From IMG/VR virus record IMGVR_UViG_3300045976_000096, positions 48,423 to 112,422 of that record: DNA of 64,000 nucleotides; one strand, 5' to 3'. The stretch is from a virus. This document shows, piece after piece, positions 2,928-34,496 of this stretch; position 1 is the stretch's first letter, and each line of letters begins with the position of its first letter. The notes below the pieces were generated by a model. The model ran no database searches and was not told the DNA's origin. It saw only the letters and a list, made by a program, of their open reading frames with translations. Position numbers and translations under genes: made by a program.

Positions 2928-2943
2928 TGTTGCCTGGAGCGAT

Positions 2944-2959
2944 CAGTCAGTTATGACTT
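2944..2959. promoter_or_regulatory. AGTCA-N4-TGACT operator
   Basis: cagtca-gtta-tgactt. Confidence 0.75.
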
Positions 2960-3027
2960 GTCGCTCCTGATTCGCACCTGTAAGATGGTGCTTGTTACAA
3001 CTACGCGCATGTGCGCAGGGATGATCA

Positions 3028-5164: not shown

Positions 5165-5708
5165 AAAGGTTGAGCTGAAGGATTTCGTCGGCAAGGAGTT
5201 CGACCTGACGGCGGTCTCCACCGCCGAGGTCGTCGCCAACGATAAATATGGCGACTTCGCAAACGCCAGCACCATCACCTTCACGCTCGATGGCGTGACG
5301 TATCAGGCGGTGGAAGACCCGAGCGACGGCTACCGGTCCTCGCTTCGGGAAATCTTCATCTGCGACACGGAACCGGCAAACCGGTTTCCAGCCCAGCGCG
5401 TGAAGGCGACGTGGAAGGAGCCGGGTTCTTACGACAACGACACGGTCGAATTCCGTTCGGTCGCCTCGGACCTGATCGTGATGGAAGTCGGCACCGACCA
5501 TGTGAATGACTATTATCCATGCTTCGTCAGCAATTTCGAGCCGAAGAACATGGACATCAACCGCACGGACGACATCCGGCAGAAGATCGCGATGGAGGAA
5601 GCCAAGCGACTCGAGGACGAACGGCATGCCCAAGATGTGCGGGACAAGCTGAACGCCAAAGCAAAGCTGGACGCGCAGCGCGACGACGCAGGCTGGGGCA
5701 CCTTTTGA
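5157..5708 (+). CDS. hypothetical phage protein
   Basis: Overlapping start; EDPSDGYRSS motif. Confidence 0.8.
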   Translation: MDKKVELKDFVGKEFDLTAVSTAEVVANDKYGDFANASTITFTLDGVTYQAVEDPSDGYRSSLREIFICDTEPANRFPAQRVKATWKEPGSYDNDTVEFRSVASDLIVMEVGTDHVNDYYPCFVSNFEPKNMDINRTDDIRQKIAMEEAKRLEDERHAQDVRDKLNAKAKLDAQRDDAGWGTF

Positions 5709-9464: not shown

Positions 9465-10024
9465 CCTTCCTGATCAACGGCATCGATACCGAAACCACCG
9501 GCGTCGACCAGCCCAAAGGCGACCGCATCATCGAGGTCGCGATCCTGACCTTCGATTTCGCCACTCGCAAGATGGTGGACCGCTACGTGCAGCGGATTGA
9601 CCCCGAGCGTCCCATCGCCGCGGCCGCCCAGGCGGTACACGGCATTTCCTACAGCGACCTCGTCGGCCAGCCGAAATGGGAAGACGTGGCGCCCGAGGTT
9701 GGTCGCCGGCTGGACGCGGCGCCGCTGGCGATCGCGCACAACATGGATTTCGACGGCCCCTTCATCGCCGGCGAAATGGTGCGCGTGGGCCTGCCGCCGC
9801 CGAATCCGGTCGCCTTCTGCACCATGCGGAACGGGCGCTGGGCGACGTTCGACGGGAAAAGCCCGAAGCTGCAGGAATTGGCGTTCAGTCTTGGCGTCAA
9901 TTATGATCCGAAGCTCGCACACGCCGCCGAGTATGATGTTGCAATTATGATGGCGTGCTTCTTCCGCGCATACGATCGTGGCTTTTTCAAGCTGCCGGAA
10001 TCCCTTCTGGCGAAAGCAGCATGA
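9461..10024 (+). CDS. DEDDh 3'-5' exonuclease (DnaQ/epsilon-like)
   Basis: DTETTG, IIEVA, AHNMDFD, AHAAEYD motifs. Confidence 0.92.
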   Translation: MTFLINGIDTETTGVDQPKGDRIIEVAILTFDFATRKMVDRYVQRIDPERPIAAAAQAVHGISYSDLVGQPKWEDVAPEVGRRLDAAPLAIAHNMDFDGPFIAGEMVRVGLPPPNPVAFCTMRNGRWATFDGKSPKLQELAFSLGVNYDPKLAHAAEYDVAIMMACFFRAYDRGFFKLPESLLAKAA

Positions 10025-10779
10025 TCCCGGCGCAGCCTGGCATTTATGCCATCGTGAACCTGACCAACGGCCGGCACTATGTCGGCAGCGCCATCAACAT
10101 CAGAAAACGCAAGGCTGTCCACCTATGCGAGCTACGTAAGGGTAAGCACGATAACTCCAAACTGCAGCGCGCTTTCAACAAGTACGGCGAAGCCGAATTC
10201 AGGTTCGATGTGTTGGAGCTGGTAGCGGACACCACGCTGCTGATCGAGCGCGAGCAGTTCTGGATGGATTCAACCAGGCCCTTCTACAATATCCTGCGCG
10301 TCGCCGGCAGCTCGCTTGGTCGAAAGGCGACCGACGAAACCAAGGCGAAGATCGCGGCTAAAGCCCGTGGCAGGAAGTGCAATTTCACTGCCGAACATCG
10401 AGCGAACATCAGTAGGGCGACCAAGGGCAAGCGTCACGGACCACTGTCGGAAGCGCACCGGGCGCAGATCAGCGAGGTCCAAAAAGCCCGCTGGACCGAT
10501 GAAGAACGACAGCGGTATGGCGAGCGCGCAGCGACGCTATTTCTCGGCAAGGAGCACACCGAGGAGACCAAGCAGGCGCTGCGTGACGTCAAGGCGGTCT
10601 ACGACTACCTGATTACGGCGCCGGATGGCACCGAGCACCGGACCAACAGCATGACGAAGTTCTGCGCCGACCATCCCGAACTGCATGCCTGCGCCATGAT
10701 GCGGGTCGCGCACGGCAAGCAGAAGGCGCACAAGGGATGGACGGTCATAGCCACGCACAAGCCTGGCACCGTCGCGTAA
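10021..10779 (+). CDS. GIY-YIG homing endonuclease with NUMOD3-like repeats
   Basis: GIYAIVN...YVGSA...R...H, EREQFW, YN; start ATG 10021 overlapping exonuclease stop. Confidence 0.9.
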   Translation: MIPAQPGIYAIVNLTNGRHYVGSAINIRKRKAVHLCELRKGKHDNSKLQRAFNKYGEAEFRFDVLELVADTTLLIEREQFWMDSTRPFYNILRVAGSSLGRKATDETKAKIAAKARGRKCNFTAEHRANISRATKGKRHGPLSEAHRAQISEVQKARWTDEERQRYGERAATLFLGKEHTEETKQALRDVKAVYDYLITAPDGTEHRTNSMTKFCADHPELHACAMMRVAHGKQKAHKGWTVIATHKPGTVA

Positions 10780-13598: not shown

Positions 13599-14045
13599 AT
13601 GGCAACAGTCTTATACCTGGACCACGACGGCAACCGGATCAGCCTTGAGCAGTACAAGGCGCATCAGGCCGACCCGACCTACACGCAGGTACACGCCTAC
13701 GACAACGGTCGTGTGCGCGCCGTCGTGACCTGGATCGGCCGCATCGTCGACCCCGGCTCGACCTTCCCGGACTACTACAAGCTGTTCAAGGTGGAAGTCT
13801 GGAACTACACCGAGGGCGGCGAGCTGGCGAAAGATCCTGGCTATCCGAAATTCTTCCCGACCAGGGACAAGGCGGTCGAGGAATACAACTTCTTCGTCGC
13901 GCGCTGGAGCGAATCCGAGCTGGATGACGAGGGGCAGCTGATCGAGGCGGGCAACACCCTGACACCTCCGCCACCACCCAACCCGGACGCGCCAAGCTCG
14001 GCGCCGCCGGCCGACGACGACATTGCAGGAGTAGGAGCATGGTAA
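13599..14045 (+). CDS. hypothetical protein, Pro-rich acidic tail ending GAW
   Basis: ORF, codon usage. Confidence 0.75.
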   Translation: MATVLYLDHDGNRISLEQYKAHQADPTYTQVHAYDNGRVRAVVTWIGRIVDPGSTFPDYYKLFKVEVWNYTEGGELAKDPGYPKFFPTRDKAVEEYNFFVARWSESELDDEGQLIEAGNTLTPPPPPNPDAPSSAPPADDDIAGVGAW

Positions 14046-15017: not shown

Positions 15018-15360
15018 CGGCCCGGCGCCGCCTTGGCGATCCTCGGCGCTGACGCGGACCACTGCAGCCATCCTGACCCGCGCCGCACATGGCGTGATAC
15101 GCGCGGGCGCGCATTTTCATCTACCCGCCTGCCCGGCCCAGGCAACGTGCAGCGCCGACCTGGCCCCGCCGCGAAACCCGCTATGCACGCCTGATCTGGA
15201 CCCGTAAAGTTCACCCATCGACGCAGCGTACAGAGCGCAGCGAACGACGCAGCAAGGGCAGCGCAGCGGGCCACGAAATTGTCCCTATCGCCATACACCG
15301 ACCTGCATACTTGACCTGTCGCGATGTGCGACACCACCAAACCTTTTTATGGAGTTTGAC

Positions 15361-16428
15361 ATGGCAGCGAAAAAGAACAAAGCGACGGACGGCAACCTGA
15401 ACGTGGCGAGCGACACCGTCGCGGGGCCGGAAGACGCGGTGCTGGCGGGGCTGCTCGAAGAACTGGAAGTGGCCGATCCGACCGTGCAGCCCGACGGCGC
15501 GAGCGGCGACGAAATCCTGGAAATCGAACCCGATGCCTCAGCGGTGGGTGTCGCCGACGAACTGATCGGCGAGGTGAGCGCGCAAGCCGCCGACACCGTG
15601 GTCGCCCTGAATGCCGAAGTCGACGCCGACGACACCGACACCCCGGTCGCCGACGTGGTCATCGGCCAGCCCGAAGCGTTCGCCGCAGCTGACGACGCCG
15701 GCATCGACTCCCTGCTCGACGACGTGGCGGGCGAACTGCACGCCGATGGCGCCGCCCAACCCGACGCCGACCCGCTCGATTCCCTGCTCGAGGATGTCGC
15801 CAGCGACGCCGCGCGCATCGAAGCCAAGCAAAAGCTCTACGCGGAACAGGAAGCGCCCGCTGCCGCCGGCGAGGGCGACACGCCGCAGGAGGCCGCACCG
15901 GGCAAGAAGGGCGGCAAGAAGAAGGACGCGGCGCCGAAAGAGCCGAAGGCACCCGCTCCGTCCAAGGTGACGCACAAGCGCGGCGACCTGCTGCTCGCCA
16001 AGCTGGGCGCGAAGGTCGGCGACTACCTCGTATTCGATGCCGATCCCGCCATCAACGACATGAAGCGCGACGCCTTCATCGAGCGCATGAACGACAACAA
16101 GGCGATCGCCGACAAGGTGCGCGACAAGATCCTGATGCTCATGACGTGGATGGCCAACGGCCGCGCGCCGAGCGAACTGAACGAGGTTCTGCGCCGGGCG
16201 TTCACGGTCCTGCACGAACAGGGCGAACTCACCAGCGGAGATAAAGGCAATCTCCAGCTCAATCTTCTGGAGAAGCCGTACTCGATCGGGACTAGCCGGA
16301 GCCAGGCTTCGCAAATCTTCATGCTCTTGCCTGAACTCGACATGGTTGTAAAAACCAAAGGCAAGATGGTGCCGAATCCCAACAGTGTCATGCTCCAGGC
16401 GGTAAATCATCAGCTCGGACTGGTATAA
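15361..16428 (+). CDS. hypothetical protein, acidic N-terminus plus conserved C-terminal domain (paralog of 28411 gene)
   Basis: Asp/Glu/Ala-rich N-half; PYSIGTSRSQASQ motif. Confidence 0.8.
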   Translation: MAAKKNKATDGNLNVASDTVAGPEDAVLAGLLEELEVADPTVQPDGASGDEILEIEPDASAVGVADELIGEVSAQAADTVVALNAEVDADDTDTPVADVVIGQPEAFAAADDAGIDSLLDDVAGELHADGAAQPDADPLDSLLEDVASDAARIEAKQKLYAEQEAPAAAGEGDTPQEAAPGKKGGKKKDAAPKEPKAPAPSKVTHKRGDLLLAKLGAKVGDYLVFDADPAINDMKRDAFIERMNDNKAIADKVRDKILMLMTWMANGRAPSELNEVLRRAFTVLHEQGELTSGDKGNLQLNLLEKPYSIGTSRSQASQIFMLLPELDMVVKTKGKMVPNPNSVMLQAVNHQLGLV

Positions 16429-16530: not shown

Positions 16531-17409
16531 ATGACAAGTGGCGTCTACTCCATCACCAACACCGTCAGCGGCAAACGGTACATTGGTAGCTCGCAGAAGA
16601 TCGCGACACGCTGGCGCATCCACCGTAACGATCTGCGAAACGGCAAGCACCACAGCCGGCATCTGCAGCACGCCTGGAACCTGGATGGCGAGGATGCCTT
16701 CGTATTTGAAATCCTGCTCGAGTGTGGCGTCGACGATCTGTTACGTGAGGAGCAGCGACTGATGGATGAAAGGCGCGCAAGGGAAGGCAACCACGGCTAC
16801 AACACGGCACCCGTTGCTGGCTCCCGTCGTGGTGTTCCGCATTCGCCCGAGGTGCGCGCCAGGATGAGTGAGAAGGCACGCGCTCGCCCGCCAATGAAGG
16901 ATGAACATCGCAAGGCGCTATCTGCCGCACTGCGTAAGGCACGATCGGAGGGTCGTCTGTTCACCGACGAGCATCGACGCAAGATTTCGGAGTCACTCAC
17001 CGGAAGGCAGTATTCGGATGAAACCCGCGCGAAGATCGGCGCCGCCGGCCGCGGTCGTCCGGTATCGGACGAAACGAAGGAGAAGCTGCGTGCCGCCTTG
17101 AAGGGCAAGCCGCTCTCCGACGAGAACTACCAGCGGCTCTTGGAGCGCAGCCGCACGACCAATGTGATCACGCCTGAAATTCGAGCCAAGATGGTCGAAT
17201 CGCGCAAGGCAACACTGGCCGCCAGGCGCAAGGAGGTCGCCGCACAAATCATCGCGCTCAAGGAGGAAGGGCTGTCGTTCTCCAAGATCGCGAAGCGTCT
17301 CACCGAGGATAAGGTGCCGACGCTGAATAGCAGGAAAGAAGGCGCGGAGCCAAGCTATAACTGGTTTCCCGCCATTGTTATCAAAATCTATAACGAGGCA
17401 ACACCATGA
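16531..17409 (+). CDS. GIY-YIG homing endonuclease, NUMOD3 repeats, C-terminal recombinase-like DNA-binding domain
   Basis: GVYSITN...YIGSS; S.ETRAKI repeats; EGLSFSKIAKRLTEDKVPT...W...V.KI. Confidence 0.88.
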   Translation: MTSGVYSITNTVSGKRYIGSSQKIATRWRIHRNDLRNGKHHSRHLQHAWNLDGEDAFVFEILLECGVDDLLREEQRLMDERRAREGNHGYNTAPVAGSRRGVPHSPEVRARMSEKARARPPMKDEHRKALSAALRKARSEGRLFTDEHRRKISESLTGRQYSDETRAKIGAAGRGRPVSDETKEKLRAALKGKPLSDENYQRLLERSRTTNVITPEIRAKMVESRKATLAARRKEVAAQIIALKEEGLSFSKIAKRLTEDKVPTLNSRKEGAEPSYNWFPAIVIKIYNEATP

Positions 17410-17747
17410 ACGACAAACTGAAGGCATTACCGGACGACGCGCTGGTTCGCCTCAAGGAGCAGGTGGACGAGGAATTCAAGCGCCGGCGCAACCACCTGTT
17501 CGCCATCGGCAAGCACGCCACCTTCTTCTCGGAGCGGTATGGGCGCGAAGTGCGCATCCTGATCACCGGGCGCGGCCCGAAGAACCTCGTCGGCTTCGAG
17601 TGCGACGAGTACGGCAACAAGGTCGGCCCGCAATGGCGCTGCCACCCCAGCGCGCTGACGCCGGTGCTGCCGAAACCGAAGCCCGTCGCGCCGACGGTGG
17701 GCGTGGGCCGCGACGCGCCCGCGTCGGCAATGGCGGGATCGTTTTAA
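17406..17747 (+). CDS. hypothetical protein
   Basis: ATGA overlap. Confidence 0.75.
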   Translation: MNDKLKALPDDALVRLKEQVDEEFKRRRNHLFAIGKHATFFSERYGREVRILITGRGPKNLVGFECDEYGNKVGPQWRCHPSALTPVLPKPKPVAPTVGVGRDAPASAMAGSF

Positions 17748-20694: not shown

Positions 20695-21075
20695 ATGCCC
20701 ATCGAGGCGATCGAGGTCGGCGAGGACATCGTCGGCTGCGGTTACTGCGGCGGGCAGCTGCTGCTGATCGAAATGATGCCGGACGGCCACCACGAAATCT
20801 GCAACGACTGCGGACAGCACTACCATGTGACGGACGAAGGCGAGAGTGCCGAGGACATCACAGCGGCGTTGGCCGCCGACATCGAAATCGTGGACGACGC
20901 CACCGGCGAGGTGGTCGGCACCACCGCGCCCGGCATGACCCACCCGTCCGAGCTGGACCGCCTGCTGCAGGAGCTGGGCGGCGAGGTGCCGATGGCCAGC
21001 GCCGCGGACCTGAACCACCTGTTCGGCATCAAGGACAAGCCCTGCCCGTATGGCGACGAGTTTGGCTCATTCTGA
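20695..21075 (+). CDS. acidic zinc-ribbon protein
   Basis: CGYCG...CNDCG. Confidence 0.7.
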   Translation: MPIEAIEVGEDIVGCGYCGGQLLLIEMMPDGHHEICNDCGQHYHVTDEGESAEDITAALAADIEIVDDATGEVVGTTAPGMTHPSELDRLLQELGGEVPMASAADLNHLFGIKDKPCPYGDEFGSF

Positions 21076-22194: not shown

Positions 22195-22494
22195 ATGCAG
22201 CAAGTCAAGACCTTATTTCCGCCCGCCAGCCTGCAGCGCGACGCCTGGTTCGGGTACGCGCCGCAGCTGGTCGCCGCCTACCGCGCCGGCCAGTACCGCG
22301 CCGGTCCCGCCTTCTACACCCGCAAGGCGGGCGAGGACGCGGTCGAGGAAGCGTTCGACCTGTCCAACAACCCGTCGCGCCAGGACGAGCGCGACCTCGT
22401 GTTCGGCGACCACCGCAGCGTTTCGGTTGGCGACATCGTGGAGGTGGGTAGTGATGCCTACCTGTGCAAATCCTCGGGCTGGGAGAAACTGTGA
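22195..22494 (+). CDS. hypothetical protein (YodL-like RSVSVGDIV motif)
   Basis: EEAFDLSN...RSVSVGDIVEV...YLC...GW. Confidence 0.7.
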   Translation: MQQVKTLFPPASLQRDAWFGYAPQLVAAYRAGQYRAGPAFYTRKAGEDAVEEAFDLSNNPSRQDERDLVFGDHRSVSVGDIVEVGSDAYLCKSSGWEKL

Positions 22495-22811
22495 TGCTGT
22501 GGATGATCACCGGCGACAAACTGCACAGGGACGGCCCGAACCTGATCGGCCGCTGCGGCGACGACCTGTGCGCGAGCCTGGGCGACATTCGCGTGCCGCC
22601 CACCCGGCAGCCCGGCATCAAGGCGGACTGCAACTACGATTTCCGTCTGCTCGATGGCGACGGCGAGCATTGCTTCACCGGCGTGTGCAAGGATCTCGAC
22701 GACCAGGATGGCGACGCCGCCTTCGAGCCGCTCGACATGTTCATGCACGGCTTCGGCGTGGTGGAAATGCAGTACCGGAAGAAAGGCGAGAAAGAATGGA
22801 AAACACTGTGA
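22494..22811 (+). CDS. hypothetical protein
   Basis: FRLLDGDGE motif; coupled. Confidence 0.7.
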   Translation: MLWMITGDKLHRDGPNLIGRCGDDLCASLGDIRVPPTRQPGIKADCNYDFRLLDGDGEHCFTGVCKDLDDQDGDAAFEPLDMFMHGFGVVEMQYRKKGEKEWKTL

Positions 22812-23044
22812 ACCCCGCCGAGCGCATCACCGACACCATGCTGCAGGCAGCGCTCGGCGTCGACGACCTCGACGAGGCGATCGGCACCATCATGGAGCAG
22901 GTCGGCATTACCGATGGCGGCATCGCCGGGATGGTATTCTCGGGCGCCTACAACCACGACTGGTGGCGCGAAGCTGACCGTCAGGACCGCTTGTGGAAGC
23001 TGTGCGAGTGGCGCGACTACGAACAGACGCTCGCCTGCATTTAA
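22808..23044 (+). CDS. hypothetical protein
   Basis: GTGA overlap. Confidence 0.65.
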   Translation: MNPAERITDTMLQAALGVDDLDEAIGTIMEQVGITDGGIAGMVFSGAYNHDWWREADRQDRLWKLCEWRDYEQTLACI

Positions 23045-23099
23045 CGGATTTTTACAATGACCGGCATACCGCCGGTCACTTTACCAAGAGGAAGTGAAG

Positions 23100-23483
23100 A
23101 TGTGCCAAACTGAAAACAAAACCCCGGCCCTGTCGCTGGAAGCGAACCTGCTGGCTGCCCTGCTGGGTCGCGGCATCGCCCTCGACGTGGCCCAGGCGGC
23201 GACCAAGGACGTGATCACCACCTTCGCCAACAGCGAGGTGGCGCACCCGTGCTGGGCCGATCAGGTGCGCGGCATTGCGCCGGCGGAGAGCATCGAGGAA
23301 AAAGAGACCACCCAGGCCAGCATCGACCCGGACGGCACGATGGAGCTGTTTCCCGGCGTACGCGTGCAAGTCGTGCGCATCGGCGAGGACGACAAGCCGG
23401 AAGACGTCACTGCCGGCATGCCAGAGAGCCTGAAGGCGGTGTTGCGCGGCATTGCCACGACGCTGGAGGCGCGCCGCAAGTAA
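23100..23483 (+). CDS. hypothetical protein
   Basis: GAGGA RBS. Confidence 0.7.
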   Translation: MCQTENKTPALSLEANLLAALLGRGIALDVAQAATKDVITTFANSEVAHPCWADQVRGIAPAESIEEKETTQASIDPDGTMELFPGVRVQVVRIGEDDKPEDVTAGMPESLKAVLRGIATTLEARRK

Positions 23484-23511
23484 CCCACAGACAACTTGAC
23501 ACTTAGGCAAG

Positions 23512-23537
23512 AAAAGCAGGCTTCACGCCTGCTTTTT
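23512..23537. terminator. bidirectional intrinsic terminator
   Basis: aaaagcagg-cttcacg-cctgcttttt. Confidence 0.75.
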
Positions 23538-23859
23538 GCGTGATAAAATCCCTCCTAGGAAAAGTTCTTTGAAATCAAGGACTTACGCCAATCTTATTGC
23601 GGAGTAAGTGCGGGCCTAACGCTGAACTCCTGCAACCACAAACCAGCACAGCAGGTCAGCACGCGCGACACCGTCGGAAAGGGCATCAGAACGCGCTACA
23701 AGCGCTTGGATTGACCCGGTTGATACCCGCACACCACCCAGCGCAAAAACGTCTCAAAAGCCCGATTTTGCGTTTTCAGGCTTGACCATTGCCGGGCACA
23801 ATCCGCGCACCGGGCGCTACACTTGCGTATCGAGTACTCAACCATACGAGGAGAGCAGG

Positions 23860-24138
23860 ATGAACGGCTACCGGGTAGCGAACGACATGGAGTACAAGCT
23901 GTACCAGGAGATTACCGGCCCGAGCGTGGCCATGATGGAGAACGGTGCCGGCATGCGGGAACTGGAGCGGGCGGTGAAAATCGCGGAAGCCCGGCTCGAG
24001 CGCCTCGGCATGGTGACGACCCAGGCGGGCCTGCTGGTGCGCGACGACCAGGACATCTTGGATACCGACGACCTGACCGCCGCGGCAGCACGACTGAAGA
24101 TGTTCGACATCCTCAACAGGGTCATGCAGGCTCCCTAA
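23860..24138 (+). CDS. hypothetical protein
   Basis: GAGGAG RBS. Confidence 0.65.
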   Translation: MNGYRVANDMEYKLYQEITGPSVAMMENGAGMRELERAVKIAEARLERLGMVTTQAGLLVRDDQDILDTDDLTAAAARLKMFDILNRVMQAP

Positions 24139-24275
24139 GAACGCGACCTACCGGCGCAAGGAAATTATAGCCCGGATTGCAATCGACGCAACTTATCGCG
24201 CCGCAACGCTTCCGAAAATAATTGTTTAAGCTGTAGAAGTATGAAATACCTATAGAAAGCAGAGGAGAGTGATAA

Positions 24276-24581
24276 GTGAACGCACCGGCCCCAAGTCCAC
24301 GCCCGCCGCTACATTTCATCGTGTGGCGCGTGACCTACAGCAGCGGCAGGACCACCGTCTCGGCGATCGACAAGAACCAGTTCGAGGCGCACATGGAGGA
24401 AAGCCCCGACTACCTCGACGGCTCGGCCTGTGTGAAAGCAATCAGCATCGCCGAGGCGGAAGACCTCGCGCGTGATCCGAACCTGTGGGAACCGATCCCG
24501 GCCCACGTAATCGAACAGGCACAAGAGCAACACCGGCAAGCAAAACTCGCGGCCAAGGCCCATTACCCGGCCGCATGGTAA
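24276..24581 (+). CDS. hypothetical protein
   Basis: GAGGAG RBS, GTG start. Confidence 0.6.
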   Translation: MNAPAPSPRPPLHFIVWRVTYSSGRTTVSAIDKNQFEAHMEESPDYLDGSACVKAISIAEAEDLARDPNLWEPIPAHVIEQAQEQHRQAKLAAKAHYPAAW

Positions 24582-24612
24582 GCGAAACCACCAGGCCACA
24601 ACAAGGAAAACC

Positions 24613-24978
24613 ATGAAACCCGAATACGAACAGGCCTTGAAGGAAGTCGCCGACCTGCACAACGAAATGTACCGGATGCGGCGGCAAGCGGACAACAAGC
24701 TGCGGCAACTCGTCAACGACCTCGTCAAGGAAGACAACCCGCACACGATCATGGAAATGCTCAGGAAGATCCCACCAGGCCCATACCGCATGGAACTGAG
24801 CATTCACCACGCCGACCGGCTTCAGGACAAGAACTACCGGCACCGCAGCGAACAGGCAGCAATCAACCTGCCCAACGCACGCACGCAATGGAACAACGCA
24901 GTGAAAGGACTGCTGCACGGCACACCAAACGGCATCATGACCACATACACGGGAGGAACAGGAACACCACGACGGTAG
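24613..24978 (+). CDS. hypothetical protein
   Basis: AAGGA RBS; T-poor coding strand. Confidence 0.65.
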   Translation: MKPEYEQALKEVADLHNEMYRMRRQADNKLRQLVNDLVKEDNPHTIMEMLRKIPPGPYRMELSIHHADRLQDKNYRHRSEQAAINLPNARTQWNNAVKGLLHGTPNGIMTTYTGGTGTPRR

Positions 24979-25162
24979 ACAGACATCATGACCACCATAC
25001 CGGTCCTCACATACACATCACATGCCTGTGTAGAGACAAGGATTGCATGGGCACATGGAAGGATCGCCTGGCGACGTATTGCCTCCTTCAATCCACCCGC
25101 AATCCCGGCTTTCCTTCCGTTCTCCCTATGAGAACACCCCGTTGCCAAGGCGGTAGCGGGTA

Positions 25163-25178
25163 TGTTTCACGTGAAACA
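25163..25178. other. parS: parS site (chromosomal ParB/Spo0J consensus)
   Basis: Perfect TGTTTCACGTGAAACA palindrome, intergenic. Confidence 0.88.
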
Positions 25179-25579
25179 TCGCTATAAGGATCGATCCTCG
25201 GCCCGCCTTGGCCCTATAAGAACGCGGCTTTCATCCTATAAGGACACTCTTATACTTTGACCCGAAATCCTATAAGGATGGGGTTGCGCCTAGGCGAAAA
25301 CGACTCTTATACATTATATCGCGACAGCAAACGGCAGCTGCGGCGACGGGTAATCCGAAGTTTCGCGCGGGCGCGCGGAAGGGCCAAGGATCGCCTAGGA
25401 ACCCACCCGGCCACGGCGTGCCGAGGCTTTCCTAGGCCCAGGGAGCGGACGATGCCTGCGGTGCGCCAAGGATTTCCTAGGCCCTCGCCTGGTCGGTGAG
25501 ACGGGCGTGAACGAGCCACCCACGCGCCGCACCTGCGCGGTCATACTACGTTCTCACCAACCACACATGAAAGCACAGC

Positions 25580-25870
25580 ATGACCCTCTTACACATCACC
25601 ACGGGCGCCGAGACCGAAACCGAAGGCACGATGGTTGTCGTCTTCAACGTCACCGAGAACGGTAAGCCTTACGCCCAGATCGCGACCGAGTCCAACAATG
25701 ACGACCAGTGGGCCAAGATGCAGGTCACGCTCGCCGCGGGCGTCTACGTCGATCCGCTGTGGGTGCAGGTCGAAGCGATGAAGGCGGTGTACGACGTCCT
25801 GAACCGCGACGGGTACAGCACCTTCGCCGACCTGTTCGCCGAGGTCGGGCACATCGTCTTCGAGATGTAA
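25580..25870 (+). CDS. hypothetical protein
   Basis: CATACT box upstream. Confidence 0.7.
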   Translation: MTLLHITTGAETETEGTMVVVFNVTENGKPYAQIATESNNDDQWAKMQVTLAAGVYVDPLWVQVEAMKAVYDVLNRDGYSTFADLFAEVGHIVFEM

Positions 25871-27263: not shown

Positions 27264-27436
27264 ACGGCTACAGCCTCACCGACTTCGACCCGACCCCGCG
27301 CCTGTTCTACTCGCAGCGCGCCAGGGTATGCCACGGTTACACGTTCTGCCAAGGTCCGTTCGTGACAGACGACTTCGGCAACAGCGTGCGGGTCAGCAAC
27401 GACAGCCTGACGCACTACCTGCGCCAGAGCCATTAA
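27260..27436 (+). CDS. hypothetical protein
   Basis: ATGA overlap; terminator at about 27457-27481. Confidence 0.55.
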   Translation: MNGYSLTDFDPTPRLFYSQRARVCHGYTFCQGPFVTDDFGNSVRVSNDSLTHYLRQSH

Positions 27437-27673
27437 GCCAGCCGCATAGCCACATCAAGGGCGCCGACCGGGCGCCCTTTATATTGCGCCACCCAGTTGC
27501 CAAGGAAGCGCCTGTCACTGCGCTGCAGGAACACCATGCGAGCACGCCTTGGCAACGCCAGCCGCGGCGAAGGTATTCCGTGGACGTTCCGCTTTCAACG
27601 CCAGCTGCGGCGACGTCATATGCAGGATTTGTCGCGCCGCCCTCGCGCCTTGGCATGCCGGTCGCGACAGAGG

Positions 27674-27883
27674 ATGATTCACATGCGAACCATTCACATG
27701 CTAATAGTTCGTAACCTAACCATTTGCGTGCTAATGATTCGCATACACATAGTTCGCATACGAACCATTCACATGCTAATGATTCGTATGCTAATCGTTC
27801 ACATGCTAATCGTTCGCGTGCTAATGATTCGTATGCTAATCGTTCGCATGTGAACAGTTGACGTATCAACAGTTGAATACGCA
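27674..27883. repeat. 15-bp tandem array (12 clear + 2 degenerate units)
   Basis: Units such as atgattcgtatgcta, atcgttcacatgcta, accattcacatgcta at exact 15-bp period. Confidence 0.92.
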
Positions 27884-28231
27884 AGTAACCCGAATCGGGT
27901 TTAGCTCACCTGTGACTGACCTTGTCAATAGGTCATTGACCAATGCACAAACAAATTTCTTGCGCAAGCTGTGCATTTGTACAGTAAAAACCACTCTTGT
28001 ATAAGACATGGTCAAACTGACAATTTTAACGCTTGTAAGTCATTGATTTTAAAGCGAACCCTCTAGGTTCAACGAACAGACAGGTCCCGGTATGGTTCTA
28101 TCAACAAAGGGAAAAACCTCACCACGGGCTTAAAAAGGGCATTTGCGGGCATATATTTTTGCGTGATGTTTTTGTGCGTCTACATGACATCAGAATCTAA
28201 TTTCACGCATAAAAAAAATCACGCAAAAGTA

Positions 28232-28260
28232 TTGACCTGGCAATTTTCGATCTGTATAGT
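28232..28260 (+). promoter_or_regulatory. strong sigma70-type promoter with A-rich UP element
   Basis: TTGACC-17bp-TATAGT, A8 tract upstream. Confidence 0.8.
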
Positions 28261-28410
28261 TCTATTCATGCACTGACGAACACAACGATTCGCAGCGCTG
28301 CGCAAGCAAGTGGTTACATAACCCGCGCGCCCGGTACTGTGGTTCGCTCTCGCAGATACTGACCGGGCAAACAAAATACTCTTTCACAACATTATATAAA
28401 GGTAACTATC

Positions 28411-29097
28411 ATGGGTAAGCAATTGAAAGCTGCAACTATCGTTAACAAACTGGGCGCAGCAGTCGCACAGCGCGTGCAAGCGCTGAAAGACAACGAGACG
28501 CACGTCGCGACCGAGTTTAAGGGCATCTTAGCGTGCTACGCGCCCGACGGTAACAATCGCGGTTCGTTCGAGCGTGCAATCGAAAGCGTGAAAGATCAGA
28601 TCGATTTTGACTTCTTAATCAAGATCATCGGTAAGCACGCAGAAACGGGCAAGAACGACCCGAACTATGTGCAAGCAAAAACGATTGTGAAAATCAATCG
28701 CTTGCTATTCGGTCTCGCAACGAAAGACATGCGCGCGCTCGACAACCATTCGCGCTCGTTGATCGTGAATGCAACGCTGAATGGTAAGCTCTCTAGCAAA
28801 GCAGCGTTCGCAACGCTGGTACGTGTTCAATGGGGGGAAGAGATCGAAGAAGCGCTGCGCGAGCGTAACAACTACAGCGCGGGTACGGGTTCGACGCAAC
28901 TCTCTAGCACAAAAGAAATGATGCGCGTTTTGGGATTAAGCGACAACCCGAAGGGCACGAAAAACGCAGACTTCGCTTTCACCGACGAAGCTCGTACGCT
29001 ACTGTGCGAACGGTTCGCGCGTCTCGCAGAACTGGTCAAGACCGCTGACAAGATCGATGCAGAGCTTGACGCAGCAATCGAAGAAGCAGCAGAGTAA
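28411..29097 (+). CDS. hypothetical protein, probable immediate-early gene (paralog of 15361 C-domain)
   Basis: AAAGGT RBS; NYSAGTGSTQLSS motif; atypical codon usage. Confidence 0.85.
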   Translation: MGKQLKAATIVNKLGAAVAQRVQALKDNETHVATEFKGILACYAPDGNNRGSFERAIESVKDQIDFDFLIKIIGKHAETGKNDPNYVQAKTIVKINRLLFGLATKDMRALDNHSRSLIVNATLNGKLSSKAAFATLVRVQWGEEIEEALRERNNYSAGTGSTQLSSTKEMMRVLGLSDNPKGTKNADFAFTDEARTLLCERFARLAELVKTADKIDAELDAAIEEAAE

Positions 29098-29100
29098 ATC

Positions 29101-29130
29101 ACAAGGGCGCACTACGGTGCGCCCTTGTTT
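29101..29130 (+). terminator. hairpin/terminator overlapping parS
   Basis: acaagggcgcac-tacg-gtgcgcccttgt-tt. Confidence 0.75.
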
Positions 29131-29141
29131 CACGTGAAACA
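29126..29141. other. parS: parS site (second perfect copy)
   Basis: TGTTTCACGTGAAACA. Confidence 0.88.
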
Positions 29142-29156
29142 CACAAGGGAAACATC

Positions 29157-29330
29157 ATGCACAAGATCGAAGAATACGACGAGCAAAGCGACGAATTCAC
29201 GGTGCGCGCACCTGACGGGACGCGTTATTTCGCTAACGCAGAAACACTCGCGCATATGCTGAATCATTACGACGAACCGAGCGCGTTTCTTGGTATGCAG
29301 TTCACTACAACCATTAAGGTGCAAGCATGA
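29157..29330 (+). CDS. hypothetical protein (57 aa)
   Basis: AAGGGA RBS; MHKIEEYDEQ...IKVQA; below ORF-track cutoff. Confidence 0.65.
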   Translation: MHKIEEYDEQSDEFTVRAPDGTRYFANAETLAHMLNHYDEPSAFLGMQFTTTIKVQA

Positions 29331-29593
29331 AAAGCGAATATCTGAAACAGCAGCGCGCGACGCGCAACGACGAGATCACGCTGTGCGTCGTCGCGCTGCT
29401 GTGTGTCGTGCTGTGCATGGGCGTGCTGATTAACGCAGCAATTGAGAGTGAACAGCGCGCAGCGCAGCGCGCGAGCGACGCACGGTTAGCGCGTACGGGT
29501 TCGCGCTTATGCTTGCAAGACGGTCGCACGATTGACCAAATGCGGTTTGACGAACCCGTACGCGCGATGTCTGCGCGTTGGTGCAAACGTTAA
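29327..29593 (+). CDS. small membrane protein
   Basis: ITLCVVALLCVVLCMGVLI TM segment. Confidence 0.7.
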   Translation: MKSEYLKQQRATRNDEITLCVVALLCVVLCMGVLINAAIESEQRAAQRASDARLARTGSRLCLQDGRTIDQMRFDEPVRAMSARWCKR

Positions 29594-29603
29594 GGGGAAA
29601 GAC

Positions 29604-29831
29604 ATGACTGACTTAGAAAAAGCAATGCAAGAGTTCGCAGCGCGTAACGGTGTGACGCAATGCGCACCCGTCACGAGCGCGAAGCAAGCAAACGAGCTTG
29701 CGAAAGCGCGACGCGTCGAACAGCGCGAACGCGAACGTGCAGAACGCGCTGCGCGCTGCGCAGAACAGAACGCAGAGAACGCGCGCTATGATCGCGAAGG
29801 TGTGTGGTACGTGGGCGGGTTCGCATCGTAG
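29604..29831 (+). CDS. hypothetical protein
   Basis: AAGGGG RBS; hairpin at 29848-29875 downstream. Confidence 0.7.
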   Translation: MTDLEKAMQEFAARNGVTQCAPVTSAKQANELAKARRVEQRERERAERAARCAEQNAENARYDREGVWYVGGFAS

Positions 29832-30051
29832 CACATACGCAACAGTAGCACGCACCGCTTGACACGGTGCGTGCGATATGCGATGTCTTAGAAAAATTTT
29901 CAACCCGAGGAGGCCCTGCCTTCCTCGACTTCCGGTCTCCGAACACCCTTCCTTACAGAATCCTGGGCGGCCGCAAAAGCCAATCCTTATACATCCAAGA
30001 TCCAAACATCCACGATCCAGGATTCCACATTTCCCCACTTATCCCCGCAAT

Positions 30052-30456
30052 TCACCAGTTATCCACAATCCCCTTGGGCCGATCCTTCGACGCCAGGCGC
30101 GAGCCATCGAAACGCCCGGCCGGCGCTGCCGCGCCTCGCCGGGGTACGTCCTGCGCGCGTGGAATGATTGCCGCCTGAATGAACAGAGGCTGGACCTCCC
30201 ATTCTGCTTTCGACTCGAATGACCGGTTGCCGCTTGGGACCAGCGCCAGGTAATTTTCCCACGACAGGTCGCGATCCTTCTGCAGGGCCAGGCACTTGCC
30301 GACCAGCTCCTTGATGATGCGCTTTTGCTCTAACGGCCAGACGCCATCCCACCTATGGGCAGGCATGTCGCCGTTCTCCTGCTCGCCCAGCTGACGCCGA
30401 AGGTACAGGTAGTCCTCGTAGTTCGGGAAGGACAGGATTTTCGCCAGGTCTCTCAC
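30052..30456 (-). CDS. small protein, two Y..Y...W helical repeats, tail SKDRPKGIVDNW
   Basis: GTG start coupled to upstream stop. Confidence 0.7.
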   Translation of the reverse strand: MRDLAKILSFPNYEDYLYLRRQLGEQENGDMPAHRWDGVWPLEQKRIIKELVGKCLALQKDRDLSWENYLALVPSGNRSFESKAEWEVQPLFIQAAIIPRAQDVPRRGAAAPAGRFDGSRLASKDRPKGIVDNW

Positions 30457-30656
30457 CAGATCACCTCCACGACGGTTTGCGGCCTGTCCGAGCCGGCGGC
30501 GCCTTGCGTTCTCGGGGTGCGCCGCACTTCCTCGCGCAGCTCCTCCATCATGTCCATCCGTGCTTTCAGGGGCATGGCGCGCCAGACGGCCTCTGAAATC
30601 GGCTCGTACTTGAGCGCCAGCGACAGCTCCACGTAGCGCTGGTAGGTGTTCACCAT
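30453..30656 (-). CDS. small protein, tail SDRPQTVVEVIW
   Basis: MVNTYQRYVEL...; coupled. Confidence 0.75.
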   Translation of the reverse strand: MVNTYQRYVELSLALKYEPISEAVWRAMPLKARMDMMEELREEVRRTPRTQGAAGSDRPQTVVEVIW

Positions 30657-30871
30657 ACGACGTCCACCGGGGTTTGCGGTTGATCGCCCTTCGGTTGGGC
30701 GGTGGCGCGCGCACGGTCGCGCATGACGCGCTGCTGGTGCTGTAGAACGTTGATCGTGATCTTGCGCATGATGGGCTTCATGTCGGTCCAGGCGTTGGCA
30801 TCGATGCAGACTTCGTTGTCGAAGTGCCCGGCCAGCCAGGTGCGCATGTAGTCGTCGTAGGAGATGTTCAC
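30650..30871 (-). CDS. small protein, tail GDQPQTPVDVVW
   Basis: MNISYDDYMR...; coupled. Confidence 0.75.
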   Translation of the reverse strand: MNISYDDYMRTWLAGHFDNEVCIDANAWTDMKPIMRKITINVLQHQQRVMRDRARATAQPKGDQPQTPVDVVW

Positions 30872-31056
30872 CAGTGGTCTCCGCCAAAACGTTCCAGTTC
30901 CTTGTTGCGTCGGTCGACGGCAGCCTGCATCTGGGCCACCATGCTCTCCTGCGCCTTCTGATCACAGCCATTCCAGACGTGCTCTGCAATAAGGCCGAAA
31001 TCGTCGTCGAACCCGGCTTCCACGCGCAGTCGGCGGTAGCGCTGGTACAGGCTCAT
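30868..31056 (-). CDS. small protein, tail FGGDHW
   Basis: MSLYQRYRRL...; coupled. Confidence 0.75.
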   Translation of the reverse strand: MSLYQRYRRLRVEAGFDDDFGLIAEHVWNGCDQKAQESMVAQMQAAVDRRNKELERFGGDHW

Positions 31057-31244
31057 GCGTCACCCCGCTGCCAGGCGATGAAGTCCTCGGTGCCGTCGGC
31101 AAAGCCGCGCTCCCAGGCCTCGACCAGCACGGGTGTAGTGTACGGACAGGCCGGCACTTCCGTGACCAGTTCGTAGCGCCCGGTGCGCCAGCCGGCATCG
31201 AGACCGTCGGCATAAGCGTCGGCGTCAGCGGTCCACTTCACCAT
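31053..31244 (-). CDS. small protein (G..AG...CPY...AW..GF, Rmf/CrpP-like pattern)
   Basis: AYADGLDAG...CPY...AWERGF. Confidence 0.65.
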   Translation of the reverse strand: MVKWTADADAYADGLDAGWRTGRYELVTEVPACPYTTPVLVEAWERGFADGTEDFIAWQRGDA

Positions 31245-31582
31245 ACCACCTCCACCGTGGTCTTCGGCGTGTCGCCCTTGCCGGTAAGCCGGTCAATCTC
31301 GTCCTGCGACGCCTCGCGCCACTCGCCGGCGCGCACGCTGGTGTCGATCGTCACGGTGGTATAGGTGATGTGCGGCACGGCACGCCCATCCCGGAACATC
31401 AGTCGCCCGGTATGGGTATCGTGACCCGGCTCGAAGTCGATGCAGATGGCGCGCAAGGTGTCGCGCCAGGTGCCGTGCGGACCCTGCACGAAGTAGCGTT
31501 TCATCACGTTCTTGCGCTGGCCACTGTCGTCGGCAGGCCTGCCGGCGCCGGCCACGCCGAGCCAGTCGATATTCGTCACCAT
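31238..31582 (-). CDS. small protein, tail GDTPKTTVEVVW
   Basis: Coupled; MKRYFV domain paralogous to the 32099 gene. Confidence 0.7.
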   Translation of the reverse strand: MVTNIDWLGVAGAGRPADDSGQRKNVMKRYFVQGPHGTWRDTLRAICIDFEPGHDTHTGRLMFRDGRAVPHITYTTVTIDTSVRAGEWREASQDEIDRLTGKGDTPKTTVEVVW

Positions 31583-31782
31583 GCGTCCACCCCGTCGGTC
31601 TTGGGTTTGTCGCCTCTTGGTGTGCCGGGGTCGACCTGGGCCTGCTTGGCCAGCGCCACGATGACGTTGCGGCGTTCCTCCTCGGGAACCAGATCGTTCC
31701 AGATCTCGTACGTGGCGGGCCTGTCCGCGCGCTTGGCCAGCCGGCACAGGCGCAGGTAGTTGTCGTAGCTGGTGTCTACCAT
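31576..31782 (-). CDS. small protein, tail GDKPKTDGVDAW
   Basis: MVDTSYDNYLRL...; coupled. Confidence 0.75.
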   Translation of the reverse strand: MVDTSYDNYLRLCRLAKRADRPATYEIWNDLVPEEERRNVIVALAKQAQVDPGTPRGDKPKTDGVDAW

Positions 31783-32099
31783 GCTCCGCCCTCCACTTCG
31801 GTTTGCGGCACGTCGGGCAGACGCACGCGCGCGCCGGCCGCCATCTTCAGCTGGTACTCGCTCGGCTCGAAGTAGGCGTTTTCGTTGTTAGGCTCCTGCA
31901 GCACCTCGATCATGGTGCCGGATTCGACGTGGCTCATCACGTCCTTGAAGCTCCACGGGCAGTGTACGGCGACGCTGCCATCGTGCTTGATGCCGCGCCG
32001 CGTCGTGATCGCGCCTTCTCCTTCGCCGAAGTCGAACTCGATGTGGTGAATGCGGTCGTTGATCGGCTTGGCGCCTGGCAGCATGAACACGCGCTTCAT
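31776..32099 (-). CDS. small protein, tail PDVPQTEVEGGAW
   Basis: MKRVFML...; ATGA overlap. Confidence 0.75.
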   Translation of the reverse strand: MKRVFMLPGAKPINDRIHHIEFDFGEGEGAITTRRGIKHDGSVAVHCPWSFKDVMSHVESGTMIEVLQEPNNENAYFEPSEYQLKMAAGARVRLPDVPQTEVEGGAW

Positions 32100-32377
32100 G
32101 GCGTCACCAGCGCCTCGACCTGGGCCAGCGCCTCGGGCGGCAGCGTGCGCAGCTTGGCGGCAAGCTCGCGCGCGCGGGTGCGGGCATCCAGCTTGTGCTG
32201 GCGCCGGGCCGCGAAGATGTGGTCGACATTGTCCAGTCCGCCGATGATGTCGAGCATGACCTCGATCGCCTCGCCCTGCGTCAGCTTGTGGGTCTTGGCC
32301 AGCTGGTTCAGATGCTCGCGCGCTTCGGCGCTCAGGTCGATGGTGTAGCGCGGGCGCGCCGGGTTGGTGGTGCCCAT
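32096..32377 (-). CDS. putative ribbon-helix-helix DNA-binding protein
   Basis: RYTIDLSAEAREHLNQLAKTHKLTQGEAIEVMLD; TATAAT and GGAGA upstream. Confidence 0.65.
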   Translation of the reverse strand: MGTTNPARPRYTIDLSAEAREHLNQLAKTHKLTQGEAIEVMLDIIGGLDNVDHIFAARRQHKLDARTRARELAAKLRTLPPEALAQVEALVTP

Positions 32378-32440: not shown

Positions 32441-32466
32441 AAAAAAAGCGCCCCGAAGGGCGCTTG
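32441..32466 (-). terminator. intrinsic terminator
   Basis: aagcgccc-ttcg-gggcgc-ttttttt on minus strand. Confidence 0.8.
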
Positions 32467-32756: not shown

Positions 32757-34496
32757 CTACGCGGCCGTCATCAAGACGGGAAAGCCCAGCGCCGCCAGGT
32801 CCACATCGCGCCCGTGCTCGTGGATGAAGCGGTCGAACCCGGCAGTCTCCTTGATGATGCTCTGGCGCTGCTTGGCGTGCAGTTTCAGATGGTCGTTAAA
32901 GTCGTCGGCGAAGTCGGTCACGAAACACAGGTTCGGCCCCTTCTTTTTCGCCCGCAGGCCGCGCCCGATGCGCTGCCTGAGCGCCACCTCGGCCTTGCCG
33001 CCGCCGGCCAGGCAGACATGGCCCACGGCCGGCACGTCCACGCCCACGTCGAGGATCGTGGTGCCGATCAGGACGTCGATGTCGCCGGCGGCCAGGCGCG
33101 CAAGCGCGCGCTTCCGCTCGTCCTGGTCGTTCTCGCCGCGGATGAAGCACACGCGCAGGCCGGCCGCGCGCATGGCGGCTTCCAGCACGTCGCCATGCTT
33201 GGTCTGCTGGATCAGAACCATCGAGGTCAGGCCGTGGCGCGCGAACATGCTGCAGCGGTCCACGATGATGTCGTTGCGGTATTCGTTCTCGACGATGCCG
33301 ATCCGGTACGCGCTCTGCCAGCCGGTGCCGCGAAACAGCTTGGCCGGCTTGTGGCGCAGCTGGATGAAGGTGAAGTGCGGCTGCGCCAGGATGCCGCGGT
33401 CGATCAGCATTTCCTCGCTGATCTTGATGGCGATCGGGCCGGAGCACGCCATCAGGCGCATGTTCGATTCCTGGTCGCCCTTCATGAACGGCGTGCCGGT
33501 CAGCGCCAGGCGGTAATAGGCGTTCTTGCAGTGTTTCAGGATCTGGTAGTAGCTCTCGCCCGACGCCTCGTGCGCTTCTTCGAGAATCACGAGACCGAAA
33601 CGCTCCAGCAGGGCAATTACGCGCGCGCGCTCGCGCATATGTTCGTTCACCTTCACCGCGGCATCGGCGCGCAGGCTGGCCGCGATCTTCTTGCGCTCGA
33701 TTTCCTGGTTTTGCTCGAATTCCTTGAGCAGGCGACGCTTTTCCGCCGGCGGCGTGCGCAATAAACCGAGCTTCGTCTCGTATTCCTTGTAGTCCTTGAG
33801 TTCTTTCTTGACGCGCGCGTCCATCATTTTTTCGAGTTCGCCCTCGACGGTCTTCTCCTCGACGCGCGCGGCGAGCGTCTGCACCATGCCGACGCAGATT
33901 TTGCGCACCGCGCGCCCGCCGCCCGCCGTCTCGTGCCCGAACTGGCCGTCGCCCAGCACGGAGCAGGCGGTGCCCATTTCCTCGAACGCGTCCTTCATCT
34001 GGTACATCAGGATGCCGCGCGTGGTCAGGAACAGGGTCGGCAGGTTGATCGAAGCGTAGGCCATGCGCGCGATGCGGCTCTTGCCGCCGCCAGTGGCCAC
34101 GCGCGCGATGATCTGGCCGTGCTTGCGCAACTGCTTGACCACCTCCGGCTGGTAGTCGTAGCGCGGATCGTAGCCGAACGAGTCGATGTCGGGACGCTCC
34201 GGCCCCTGCGGCTCGGGCAGGGGGCGCTTGACGTGGCGCACCTGATAGCCTTGCGCGCGCAGCTTGGCCGAGACGTAATGCACGAAGCCGGCCGGGAAGG
34301 TGCCGGCGCGAAAGTCCAGGAACGAGCTGCGGCCATCCCAGTTGCCCTTCTTGAAGGACATGACGTGCTCGGCGCCGGCAACCGCGTACGAGAGAATCTC
34401 CTGGACCGCCAGCTTGACCACCCGGTCGGGGTCGTGCAACTTGGCGATGACGGCGTTACTGGCGATTGTGATTGTAAGGCTCATTGCGCTTGCCAT
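32757..34496 (-). CDS. superfamily 2 (DExH-type) helicase
   Basis: ATGGGKS, ILEEAH, LTGTP, GVDVP, QRIGRGLR motifs. Confidence 0.93.
   Translation of the reverse strand: MASAMSLTITIASNAVIAKLHDPDRVVKLAVQEILSYAVAGAEHVMSFKKGNWDGRSSFLDFRAGTFPAGFVHYVSAKLRAQGYQVRHVKRPLPEPQGPERPDIDSFGYDPRYDYQPEVVKQLRKHGQIIARVATGGGKSRIARMAYASINLPTLFLTTRGILMYQMKDAFEEMGTACSVLGDGQFGHETAGGGRAVRKICVGMVQTLAARVEEKTVEGELEKMMDARVKKELKDYKEYETKLGLLRTPPAEKRRLLKEFEQNQEIERKKIAASLRADAAVKVNEHMRERARVIALLERFGLVILEEAHEASGESYYQILKHCKNAYYRLALTGTPFMKGDQESNMRLMACSGPIAIKISEEMLIDRGILAQPHFTFIQLRHKPAKLFRGTGWQSAYRIGIVENEYRNDIIVDRCSMFARHGLTSMVLIQQTKHGDVLEAAMRAAGLRVCFIRGENDQDERKRALARLAAGDIDVLIGTTILDVGVDVPAVGHVCLAGGGKAEVALRQRIGRGLRAKKKGPNLCFVTDFADDFNDHLKLHAKQRQSIIKETAGFDRFIHEHGRDVDLAALGFPVLMTAA

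Follow-up and report, generated by a model that had tools for sequence, protein, structure and literature searches.

The present analysis concerns a 64-kb stretch (bases 48423-112422) of the 112,422-bp IMG/VR virus record IMGVR_UViG_3300045976_000096, which is rated complete. The whole stretch is referred to as the window, and coordinates are those of the window unless stated otherwise. On its minus strand lies an array of small genes, in which an RHH-like gene (G0) is followed by eight small genes (G1-G8) running down to position 30052, and most of the encoded proteins end in a common C-terminal tail with a terminal tryptophan. This tail belongs to a wider set of aromatic-ended peptides in the same genome and in related phages, and it probably tethers otherwise unlike proteins to a common partner. 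The genome under study is designated G000, G001-G005 denote IMG/VR relatives, and the L-numbered loci are segments of this genome (L073) or of relatives (such as L071 of ANB28); outside the array, genes were called with a simple codon-usage caller.

The array is preceded by a gene for a UvsW-like helicase (32757-34496, minus strand), whose product is 43-46% identical to its counterparts in Stenotrophomonas phage ANB28, Pseudomonas phage nickie, and Rhizobium phage RHEph10, and approximately 40% identical to those of several Klebsiella phages, including pJN2-26. Downstream of the helicase gene are a small membrane-protein gene, a terminator-like hairpin with a T run (32446-32465, minus strand), which lies 3′ of the small membrane-protein gene and divides the helicase unit from the array, and the RHH-led array itself. 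G0 (32096-32377, minus strand, as are all the following genes of the array) encodes a 93-residue protein without a tail, and its homologues occupy the same position in relatives. G1 (31776-32099, 107 residues) has a beta-type body and the tail P-D-V-P-Q-T...G-A-W; its TAG stop overlaps the ATG of G2, and its homologue P0002 retains the tail. G2 (31576-31782, 68 residues) belongs to a three-helix family and has a long tail, which is retained as K-P-K-T..W in P0042 and P0059, and G3 (31238-31582, 114 residues) combines a beta-type body with a long tail; each of these two genes overlaps the next in ATGGTGA. G4 (31053-31244, 63 residues) ends in G-D-A, is the sole member of G1-G8 without a tryptophan tail, and has an ATGA overlap. 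The three-helix family continues with G5 (30868-31056, 62 residues), which carries the short tail G-G-D-H-W and in whose TGGTGA the GTG start of G6 is contained, and with G6 (30650-30871, 73 residues) and G7 (30453-30656, 67 residues), both with long tails. The last codons of G7, of which P0040 is a close homologue, are an extended Shine-Dalgarno (SD) sequence, GGAGGTGATC, for G8. This last gene (30052-30456, 134 residues) encodes a three-helix N-terminal half, a long linker of proline, glycine, alanine, and arginine, and the tail D-R-P-K-G..W. Seven of the eight array junctions overlap, five in ATGGTGA or CTGGTGA, one in ATGGTAG (G1/G2), and one in ATGA (G4/G5), and GGAGG-type SD words are located within the last codons of the upstream gene, 5-9 nt ahead of the next start.

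Searches of Pfam and PHROGs with G0-G8 yielded no family, apart from phrog_3203, a PHROG of unknown function that is the sole family match of G0 (1.6e-6), and a sub-threshold match of G4 to the ribosome modulation factor PF04957 (E 9.4e-5, 22.8 bits versus a cut-off of 27.9); G0 had no Pfam RHH match at E ≤1. Against cultured phages, neither the array by blastn nor two tagged proteins by tblastn gave a match, a word-indexed homology search with G1 returned two matches only, and P0027 had no relative in IMG/VR. A promoter scan around the array detected no sigma-70-type promoter, and no promoter-like site or hairpin was detected between the array genes; a TATAAT box at 32417-32412 was noted by eye only. 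Directly past the G8 stop, TGGAT and TGGA words crowd positions 29980-30051 (minus strand).

The sequence D-x-P-[KQ]-[TG]-x(4-6)-W ends six of the proteins encoded by G1-G8, G5 ends in the short form G-D-H-W, and G4 has neither; an initial annotation of this DNA had reported seven tailed genes among the eight downstream of the RHH-like gene, and all genes and C-termini that it named were located on the minus strand. When 1,866 stop-to-stop open reading frames (ORFs) of at least 30 residues from the whole genome were searched with the strict pattern D.P[KQ][TG].{2,7}W$, exactly the six array ORFs were recovered. The matching DNA pattern occurs ten times in the window versus 2.84 expected, with six of the ten occurrences in the array, and it is not used upstream of other genes. 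Codons within the array tails vary synonymously (Asp as GAC or GAT, Pro as CCG or CCC, the x codon free), and the D-x-P-[KQ]-T part, as had been claimed, lies upstream of the SD and overlap. G8 retains its tail with no downstream partner, no ORF of at least 40 codons following it, again in line with the initial annotation. The segments ahead of the array tails are rich in proline, glycine, alanine, arginine, and threonine. The consensus is D-x-P-[KQ]-[TSG]-x(2-6)-[DE]-x-W-COOH, or the short form G-D-x-W, placed after a linker.

The initial annotation treated the tag as a property of the operon, in which it is indeed present, but missed that it is found genome-wide and clade-wide. Of the approximately 114-152 proteins called per genome, 8-14 end in tryptophan, compared with an overall tryptophan frequency of approximately 1.2% (p 4e-4 to 9e-9). 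In nickie, 17 of 151 proteins instead have tryptophan at one of the last three positions (p 3e-5). Non-structural proteins carry related aromatic-ended tails clearly in five further IMG/VR genomes, nickie, ANB28, and RHEph10 and marginally in pJN2-26, whereas T5 has no tags and is the sole relative examined without tails. The tagged genes all lie in replication, recombination, or accessory parts of the genome, and none in the structural module. The wording of the tails differs from one lineage to another: G000-G004 use [FWY]-G-[ST]-[WF], D-x-P-x-T..W, and G-x-G-A-W; nickie uses F-G-x-W followed by one extra alanine or serine, which supplies an ATGA overlap; RHEph10 uses F-G-R-F; and pJN2-26 has a few W-A-T-W tails, with an enrichment of tryptophan ends that is marginal (p 0.05). 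In ANB28, nine consecutive small genes follow the helicase gene (L071:23966-26662; record 100370-103066), of which eight carry Y-G-x-W at the C-terminus, whereas D-S-I-W closes the ninth. Half of these genes have a 1-nt TAATG overlap, and in the other half the next start lies inside the Y-G codons; overlaps of 11-14 nt occur as well as those of 1 nt. Between the Rad50-like and RuvC-like genes, G000-G004 encode orthologous proteins (E 5e-67 to 5e-7) whose tail is kept while the wording drifts; the same syntenic slot in RHEph10 and pJN2-26 bears their own dialects. Elsewhere on the plus strand of the window are tagged an unrelated 183-residue protein with the sister tag W-G-T-F (5157-5708), a 148-residue protein with an acidic tail ending in G-V-G-A-W that is kept in four genomes (13599-14045), a 113-residue protein ending in D-A-P-A-S...G-S-F, a D-x-P tail with a terminal phenylalanine (17406-17747), a 126-residue protein ending in D-K-P...F-G-S-F (20695-21075), and a 101-residue protein ending in Y-P-A-A-W, whose G001 counterpart ends in Y-P-E-V-W (24276-24581). 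Seen across these genomes, the array motif is one dialect of a clade-wide, aromatic-ended tag family, [FWY]-G-x-[WF], in the nickie-, ANB28-, and RHEph10-like phages of ~110 kb.

The bodies that carry the array tails are of two unrelated types, a confidently predicted three-helix domain and a beta-rich "MKRxF" domain. A family profile made from outside homologues with G5 as the single array member matches G7 (1e-11), the first half of G8 (4e-6), G2 (3e-5), and G6 (6e-4), which bears out the three-helix group of paralogues proposed previously; the proposal that this domain occurs twice in G8 was not borne out, since the profile detected no second repeat. Of the other proposed group, G1 and G3 are only weakly alike (E 0.002-0.01 directly, 2e-4 via the L034 homologue), and the two-group proposal holds in part. 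An exhaustive profile search collected the three-helix family into 60 clusters at 50% identity, nearly all with tails of the H-G-E-V-W, G-D-A-W, G-W-G-x-W, or K-P-K-T..W type, and close homologues of G2 and G7 retain the long form. AlphaFold2, run on a 30-sequence alignment, predicts the G5-type body as three helices with a mean predicted local distance difference test (pLDDT) score of 91 and gives low confidence to the last residues; no significant fold match was found for the body, the best being an HMG box at E 1.9. The 148-residue protein (13599-14045) comprises a folded domain, a poly-proline linker, and the acidic tail D-D-D-I...G-A-W, with a pLDDT below 50 for linker and tail. The segments before the tails and the low confidence of the tails themselves indicate a common architecture of body, flexible linker, and terminal plug. 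The 148-residue protein was also considered as an SSB and rejected, as its AlphaFold2 model has a pLDDT of 71 and Foldseek returned nothing at E ≤0.001; in VIA, WGR and PH-like matches were obtained at Z 5-6 only, below the meaningful level.

In the operon, the last three or four codons of the tailed genes are dual-coded, as they also spell the SD of the following gene together with its overlapping start, ATGGTGA or CTGGTGA, and the initial annotation was right that V-E..W-stop can in part arise in this manner. Translational coupling, which the array does possess, explains the W-stop and part of V-E-V but not D-x-P-K/Q-T. It is very improbable that the whole tail is a by-product of the ribosome-binding site and start/stop overlap of the next gene and the peptide has no role, although seven of the eight junctions overlap, GTGGAGGTG and GGAGGTGATC spell SD sequences, G4 has the same GGTGACGCATG context and ends in G-D-A without tryptophan, and TGGTGA is enriched in the window (48 versus 25 expected). 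Loss of the tail wherever coupling is absent had been named in advance as the outcome that would speak against a tag, and the tail was found to persist without coupling. Two unlinked proteins (genome 41760-42059 and 42745-43329), encoded near the Rad50-like, RuvC-like, and NrdA genes, carry the tails D-I-P-Q-S..W and D-R-P-Q-N..W before TAA stops, with downstream gaps of 13 nt and 79 nt; the gene that follows either possesses an SD of its own past the stop or is 79 nt off. Across four related complete genomes, the tails use TAA, TAG, and TGA stops, all four proline codons (CCG, CCC, CCA, and CCT), and a free x codon, and several tail-bearing genes lack an overlapping start; the same tails are also found ahead of gaps of 50-80 nt or where an operon ends. 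In L034, the closest relative (helicase 80% identical), the G5 orthologue is the final gene of its operon, ahead of AT-rich non-coding DNA, and retains G-G-D-H-W. The tails recur in relatives spanning 41-62% GC, and in the AT-rich G005 (41% GC) the listed tailed genes, with K-P-K-T...W and L-G-S-W tails, stop with TAA or TAG, not TGA. The uncoupled tails thus largely refute a reading based on ribosome-binding site and overlap alone, and the sequences show that selection acts on the entire tail as a peptide. As a caution of wider use, C-terminal residues in overlapping operons are dual-coded, and motif claims therefore need uncoupled controls.

Two further explanations look to the history of the genes. 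The tail could be a relic shared through duplication from one ancestor and without function of its own, given that five or six array genes are three-helix paralogues; this is highly improbable, since unrelated beta-type bodies and unrelated, unlinked genes elsewhere in the genome bear the tag, and since the protein encoded upstream of NrdA keeps the tail motif while its BLAST match is limited to the N-terminal ~30 residues, the remainder having diverged and the length having changed. The initial annotation also offered a recombining cassette junction, in which conserved junction DNA would mediate the shuffling of small-gene cassettes, as in the PeSL-type cassettes of T4. Array content does differ strongly among relatives: the present array has eight genes, L034 and L029 have two each, and a SLOG-like gene accompanies four genes in L002 and a single gene in L003. 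The region is therefore hyperplastic. Even so, such a junction is extremely improbable and the idea was left unsupported because the junction DNA is only 31-73% identical, with no shared exact run longer than 9 nt; near-identical promoter and stem-loop repeats flank the ORFs of the T4 cassettes but are missing between the genes here, and the tag also occurs on single genes far from any array. As separate observations at L029, the G1 homologue (2699-3009) is apparently frameshifted, with the body in one frame to about 2953 and the D-x-P..W tail ending at 3009 in another, and the RHH gene upstream of it is cut to 40 residues. Other explanations grant the tail a function different from docking. 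An exposed aromatic C-terminus could cause early or accessory proteins to be degraded or processed at a set time by a protease of the host or the phage, by which the set would be cleared together. C-terminal degrons such as the ssrA tag and the C-terminus of MuA are known, and like them the tag forms the very end of the protein, behind a flexible linker. Moreover, none of the tagged proteins is structural, many of them are small and accessory, and the residue after tryptophan in nickie varies between alanine and serine, which implies that a free tryptophan carboxylate is not required. A degron is nevertheless unlikely: the proteasome/HslV family PF00227 had no match in any genome tested, nickie included, although an HslV-family peptidase is annotated in the nickie record, and this candidate reader was rejected; to our knowledge, the tags are unlike ClpX, Lon, or Tsp motifs; and the tag is retained over long distances in conserved proteins that share synteny with replication and recombination genes, which recruitment fits at least equally well. 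Alternatively, the tail could be a sorting signal that loads proteins into the capsid for injection or sends them along an export route or to a different compartment. Terminal peptides that direct proteins to capsid-like shells are known, among them the capsid-targeting sequence of T4 and the cargo peptides of encapsulins. An invariant C-terminal tryptophan is also reported to dock McdB on carboxysome shells (PMC11321042). Sorting is decidedly improbable here, as the tagged genes belong to non-structural modules, ten to twenty cargo species would be unusual, and no protease-site pattern was found beside the tag.

The tails on uncoupled genes with TAA or TAG stops, those on last-in-operon orthologues, and those in the AT-rich relative together make a shared docking or targeting tag the best-supported of the readings put forward in the initial annotation. 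The tail is thus more likely than not a short docking peptide on a flexible linker, by which unlike accessory proteins would be tethered to one hub. The exposed tail would insert its terminal tryptophan and the D-x-P-K/Q-T element into one common partner, and many unlike proteins would meet at the same hub in the course of infection, whether recruited to it, competing for it, or handled by it. Candidates for the hub are the gp32-like SSB, the RecA/UvsX-like protein, the DnaE-type polymerase with the host clamp, and a CobT-like vWA protein paired with a CobS-like AAA+ protein. The genome encodes a DnaB-like helicase, a primase, a DnaE-type polymerase with a fused UDG-like domain, a DnaQ-like exonuclease, the gp32-like SSB, RecA/UvsX-like, UvsY-like, Mre11/Rad50-like, and RuvC-like proteins, NrdAB, and an AAA+ ATPase weakly similar to a clamp loader; each of these, the CobT/CobS-like pair, or a protein of the host is a candidate reader. 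The CobT-like vWA protein (661 residues; CobT_C/vWA domains) and the CobS/CbbQ-like AAA+ protein (429 residues; AAA_5/CbbQ_C domains) are encoded side by side (G000 22465-25779; L073:2465-5779), and the latter ends in the conserved sequence Q-R-[IV]-F-[GA]. CobT_C is present in G000-G003, ANB28, RHEph10, and pJN2-26 (in nickie by annotation only) and absent from T5, and the CobS-like AAA_5 is present in all five genomes searched (G000-G003 and ANB28). A more elaborate scenario, conceivable but of low probability, is that D-x-P-[KQ]-T..W, [FWY]-G-x-W, and F-G-R-F constitute a lineage-specific, aromatic-ended C-terminal code, a protein-addressing system private to these phages, read by one phage-encoded hub, for which the CobT/CobS-like pair is the most intriguing candidate; the hub would collect accessory and recombination proteins, a set that changes, or remodel them or pass them on, and new clients would enter through the hyperplastic RHH-led array.

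Several points weigh against the docking reading. An SD of the form GGNGA followed by an overlapping start encodes G-[DE]-x-W-stop (GGNGAN NNN TGG TGA), so that the terminal residues are confounded in this operon, and part of the tryptophan enrichment in coupled arrays could be translational. The dialects diverge considerably (D-x-P...W versus W-G-S-W versus Y-G-x-W), and a single reader for all of them is an assumption. No match to SSB (PF00436), DnaN (PF02768), or the proteasome/HslV family (PF00227) nominates a hub. The co-occurrence of CobT/CobS with the tags was seen in related phages only and is therefore a lead, not independent evidence.

Other candidate partners were considered. A canonical SSB or DnaN was rejected as the hub after the negative results with PF00436 and PF02768, and a PurA-like gene is absent. 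The DnaE-type Pol III alpha gene (G000 27411-30953; L073:7411-10953) encodes a C-terminal UDG-superfamily domain and, between this domain and the polymerase part, a D-Q-x-E-L-[ML]-P-G-[LI] stretch conserved in eight genomes, which may be a clamp-binding-type motif. No hidden clamp was found beside DnaE among the proteins probed: the 417-residue neighbour, located between DnaE and the gp32-like SSB (L073:11037-12290), resembles UvsY in its C-terminal part (TM 0.81 by the hit in an ESM Atlas structure search), and the 218-residue neighbour is helical. A PDB sequence search with a 359-residue protein (15349-16428) gave nothing. Two further observations were made. A 251-residue protein encoded directly past the CobS-like gene (L073:5806-6561) is similar (7e-10) to a PHROG whose annotation is RNA polymerase sigma factor, and it may be a phage sigma-like factor. 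Two genes resembling GIY-YIG plus NUMOD3 homing endonucleases are located in the replication region at 9955-10779 and 16531-17409 (plus strand).

If the tail is a docking label, a dozen or more ORFan proteins per genome would be joined in one functional network. This would provide a handle on proteins beyond the reach of homology searches and a simple means of finding the hub in these little-studied phages of ~110 kb. Biocontrol candidates against Pseudomonas syringae and Stenotrophomonas belong to this group, as do relatives of the Klebsiella phage-plasmid pJN2-26. Nickie, ANB28, and RHEph10 have been brought into culture, so that peptide pull-downs and tail deletions are feasible at once and the idea is testable.

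No published account of the tail wording, or of its spread over many unrelated phage proteins, was found in the literature searched; the principle of a terminal peptide read by a hub is already known. The vWA-MoxR (CobT/CobS-like) peptide-capture systems are defined by a vWA protein with a MIDAS site, a partner AAA+ ATPase, and a ligand peptide; the vWA and AAA+ pair of G000 is a candidate system of this kind. In McdB, an invariant C-terminal tryptophan docks the protein on carboxysomes (PMC11321042), and a terminal tryptophan on a disordered tail is the key docking residue, as is proposed here; unlike the present case, McdB as described there is one adaptor protein with a shell target in a ParA-type positioning system, and its sequence is unrelated to the tails. 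A further parallel is clamp binding, where one C-terminal peptide is common to many unrelated proteins and read by one hub, and the phage likewise has a DnaE-type polymerase, a DnaQ-like exonuclease, and the AAA+ ATPase weakly similar to a clamp loader. Clamp-binding motifs include the bacterial QL[SD]LF, the PIP box Q-x-x-[LIVM]-x-x-[FYW]-[FYW], and the C-terminal tails that bind gp45 in T4 and RB69. The G6 and G7 tails, which read Q-T-x-V-[DE]-V-[VI]-W, fit the spacing of the PIP box and gp45 tails, although position 7 is aliphatic instead of aromatic, and many other tails are shorter or have lysine for glutamine. No array tail fits the beta-clamp consensus QL[SD]LF or QLxLxL, the Q-x-E-L-[ML]-P-G-[LI] stretch of the phage DnaE being separate, and no clamp gene was found by PF02768, a search that did not cover the gp45 families or a fold-level comparison of all unknown proteins. 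The bacterial SSB ends in the tip D-D-D-I-P-F-COOH, and gp2.5 and gp4 of T7 have acidic tails ending in phenylalanine. The present tails share with these an extreme C-terminal peptide on a disordered linker, one or more acidic residues, and a terminal aromatic, here a putative plug, and the 148-residue protein, with its poly-proline linker followed by D-D-D-I...G-A-W, resembles the SSB tip in particular. The tail does not, however, sit on an OB-fold SSB: PF00436 is absent, the array bodies are three-helix or beta-rich, and the gp32-like SSB has no such tail. Only one or two acidic residues are present, and the long form differs from the SSB tip in its basic K (or Q), its D-x-P-x-T element, and its tryptophan end. 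Furthermore, the arrangement is reversed, since in the SSB and T7 systems one hub carries the tail and many proteins read it, whereas here the tail is carried by many unrelated proteins.

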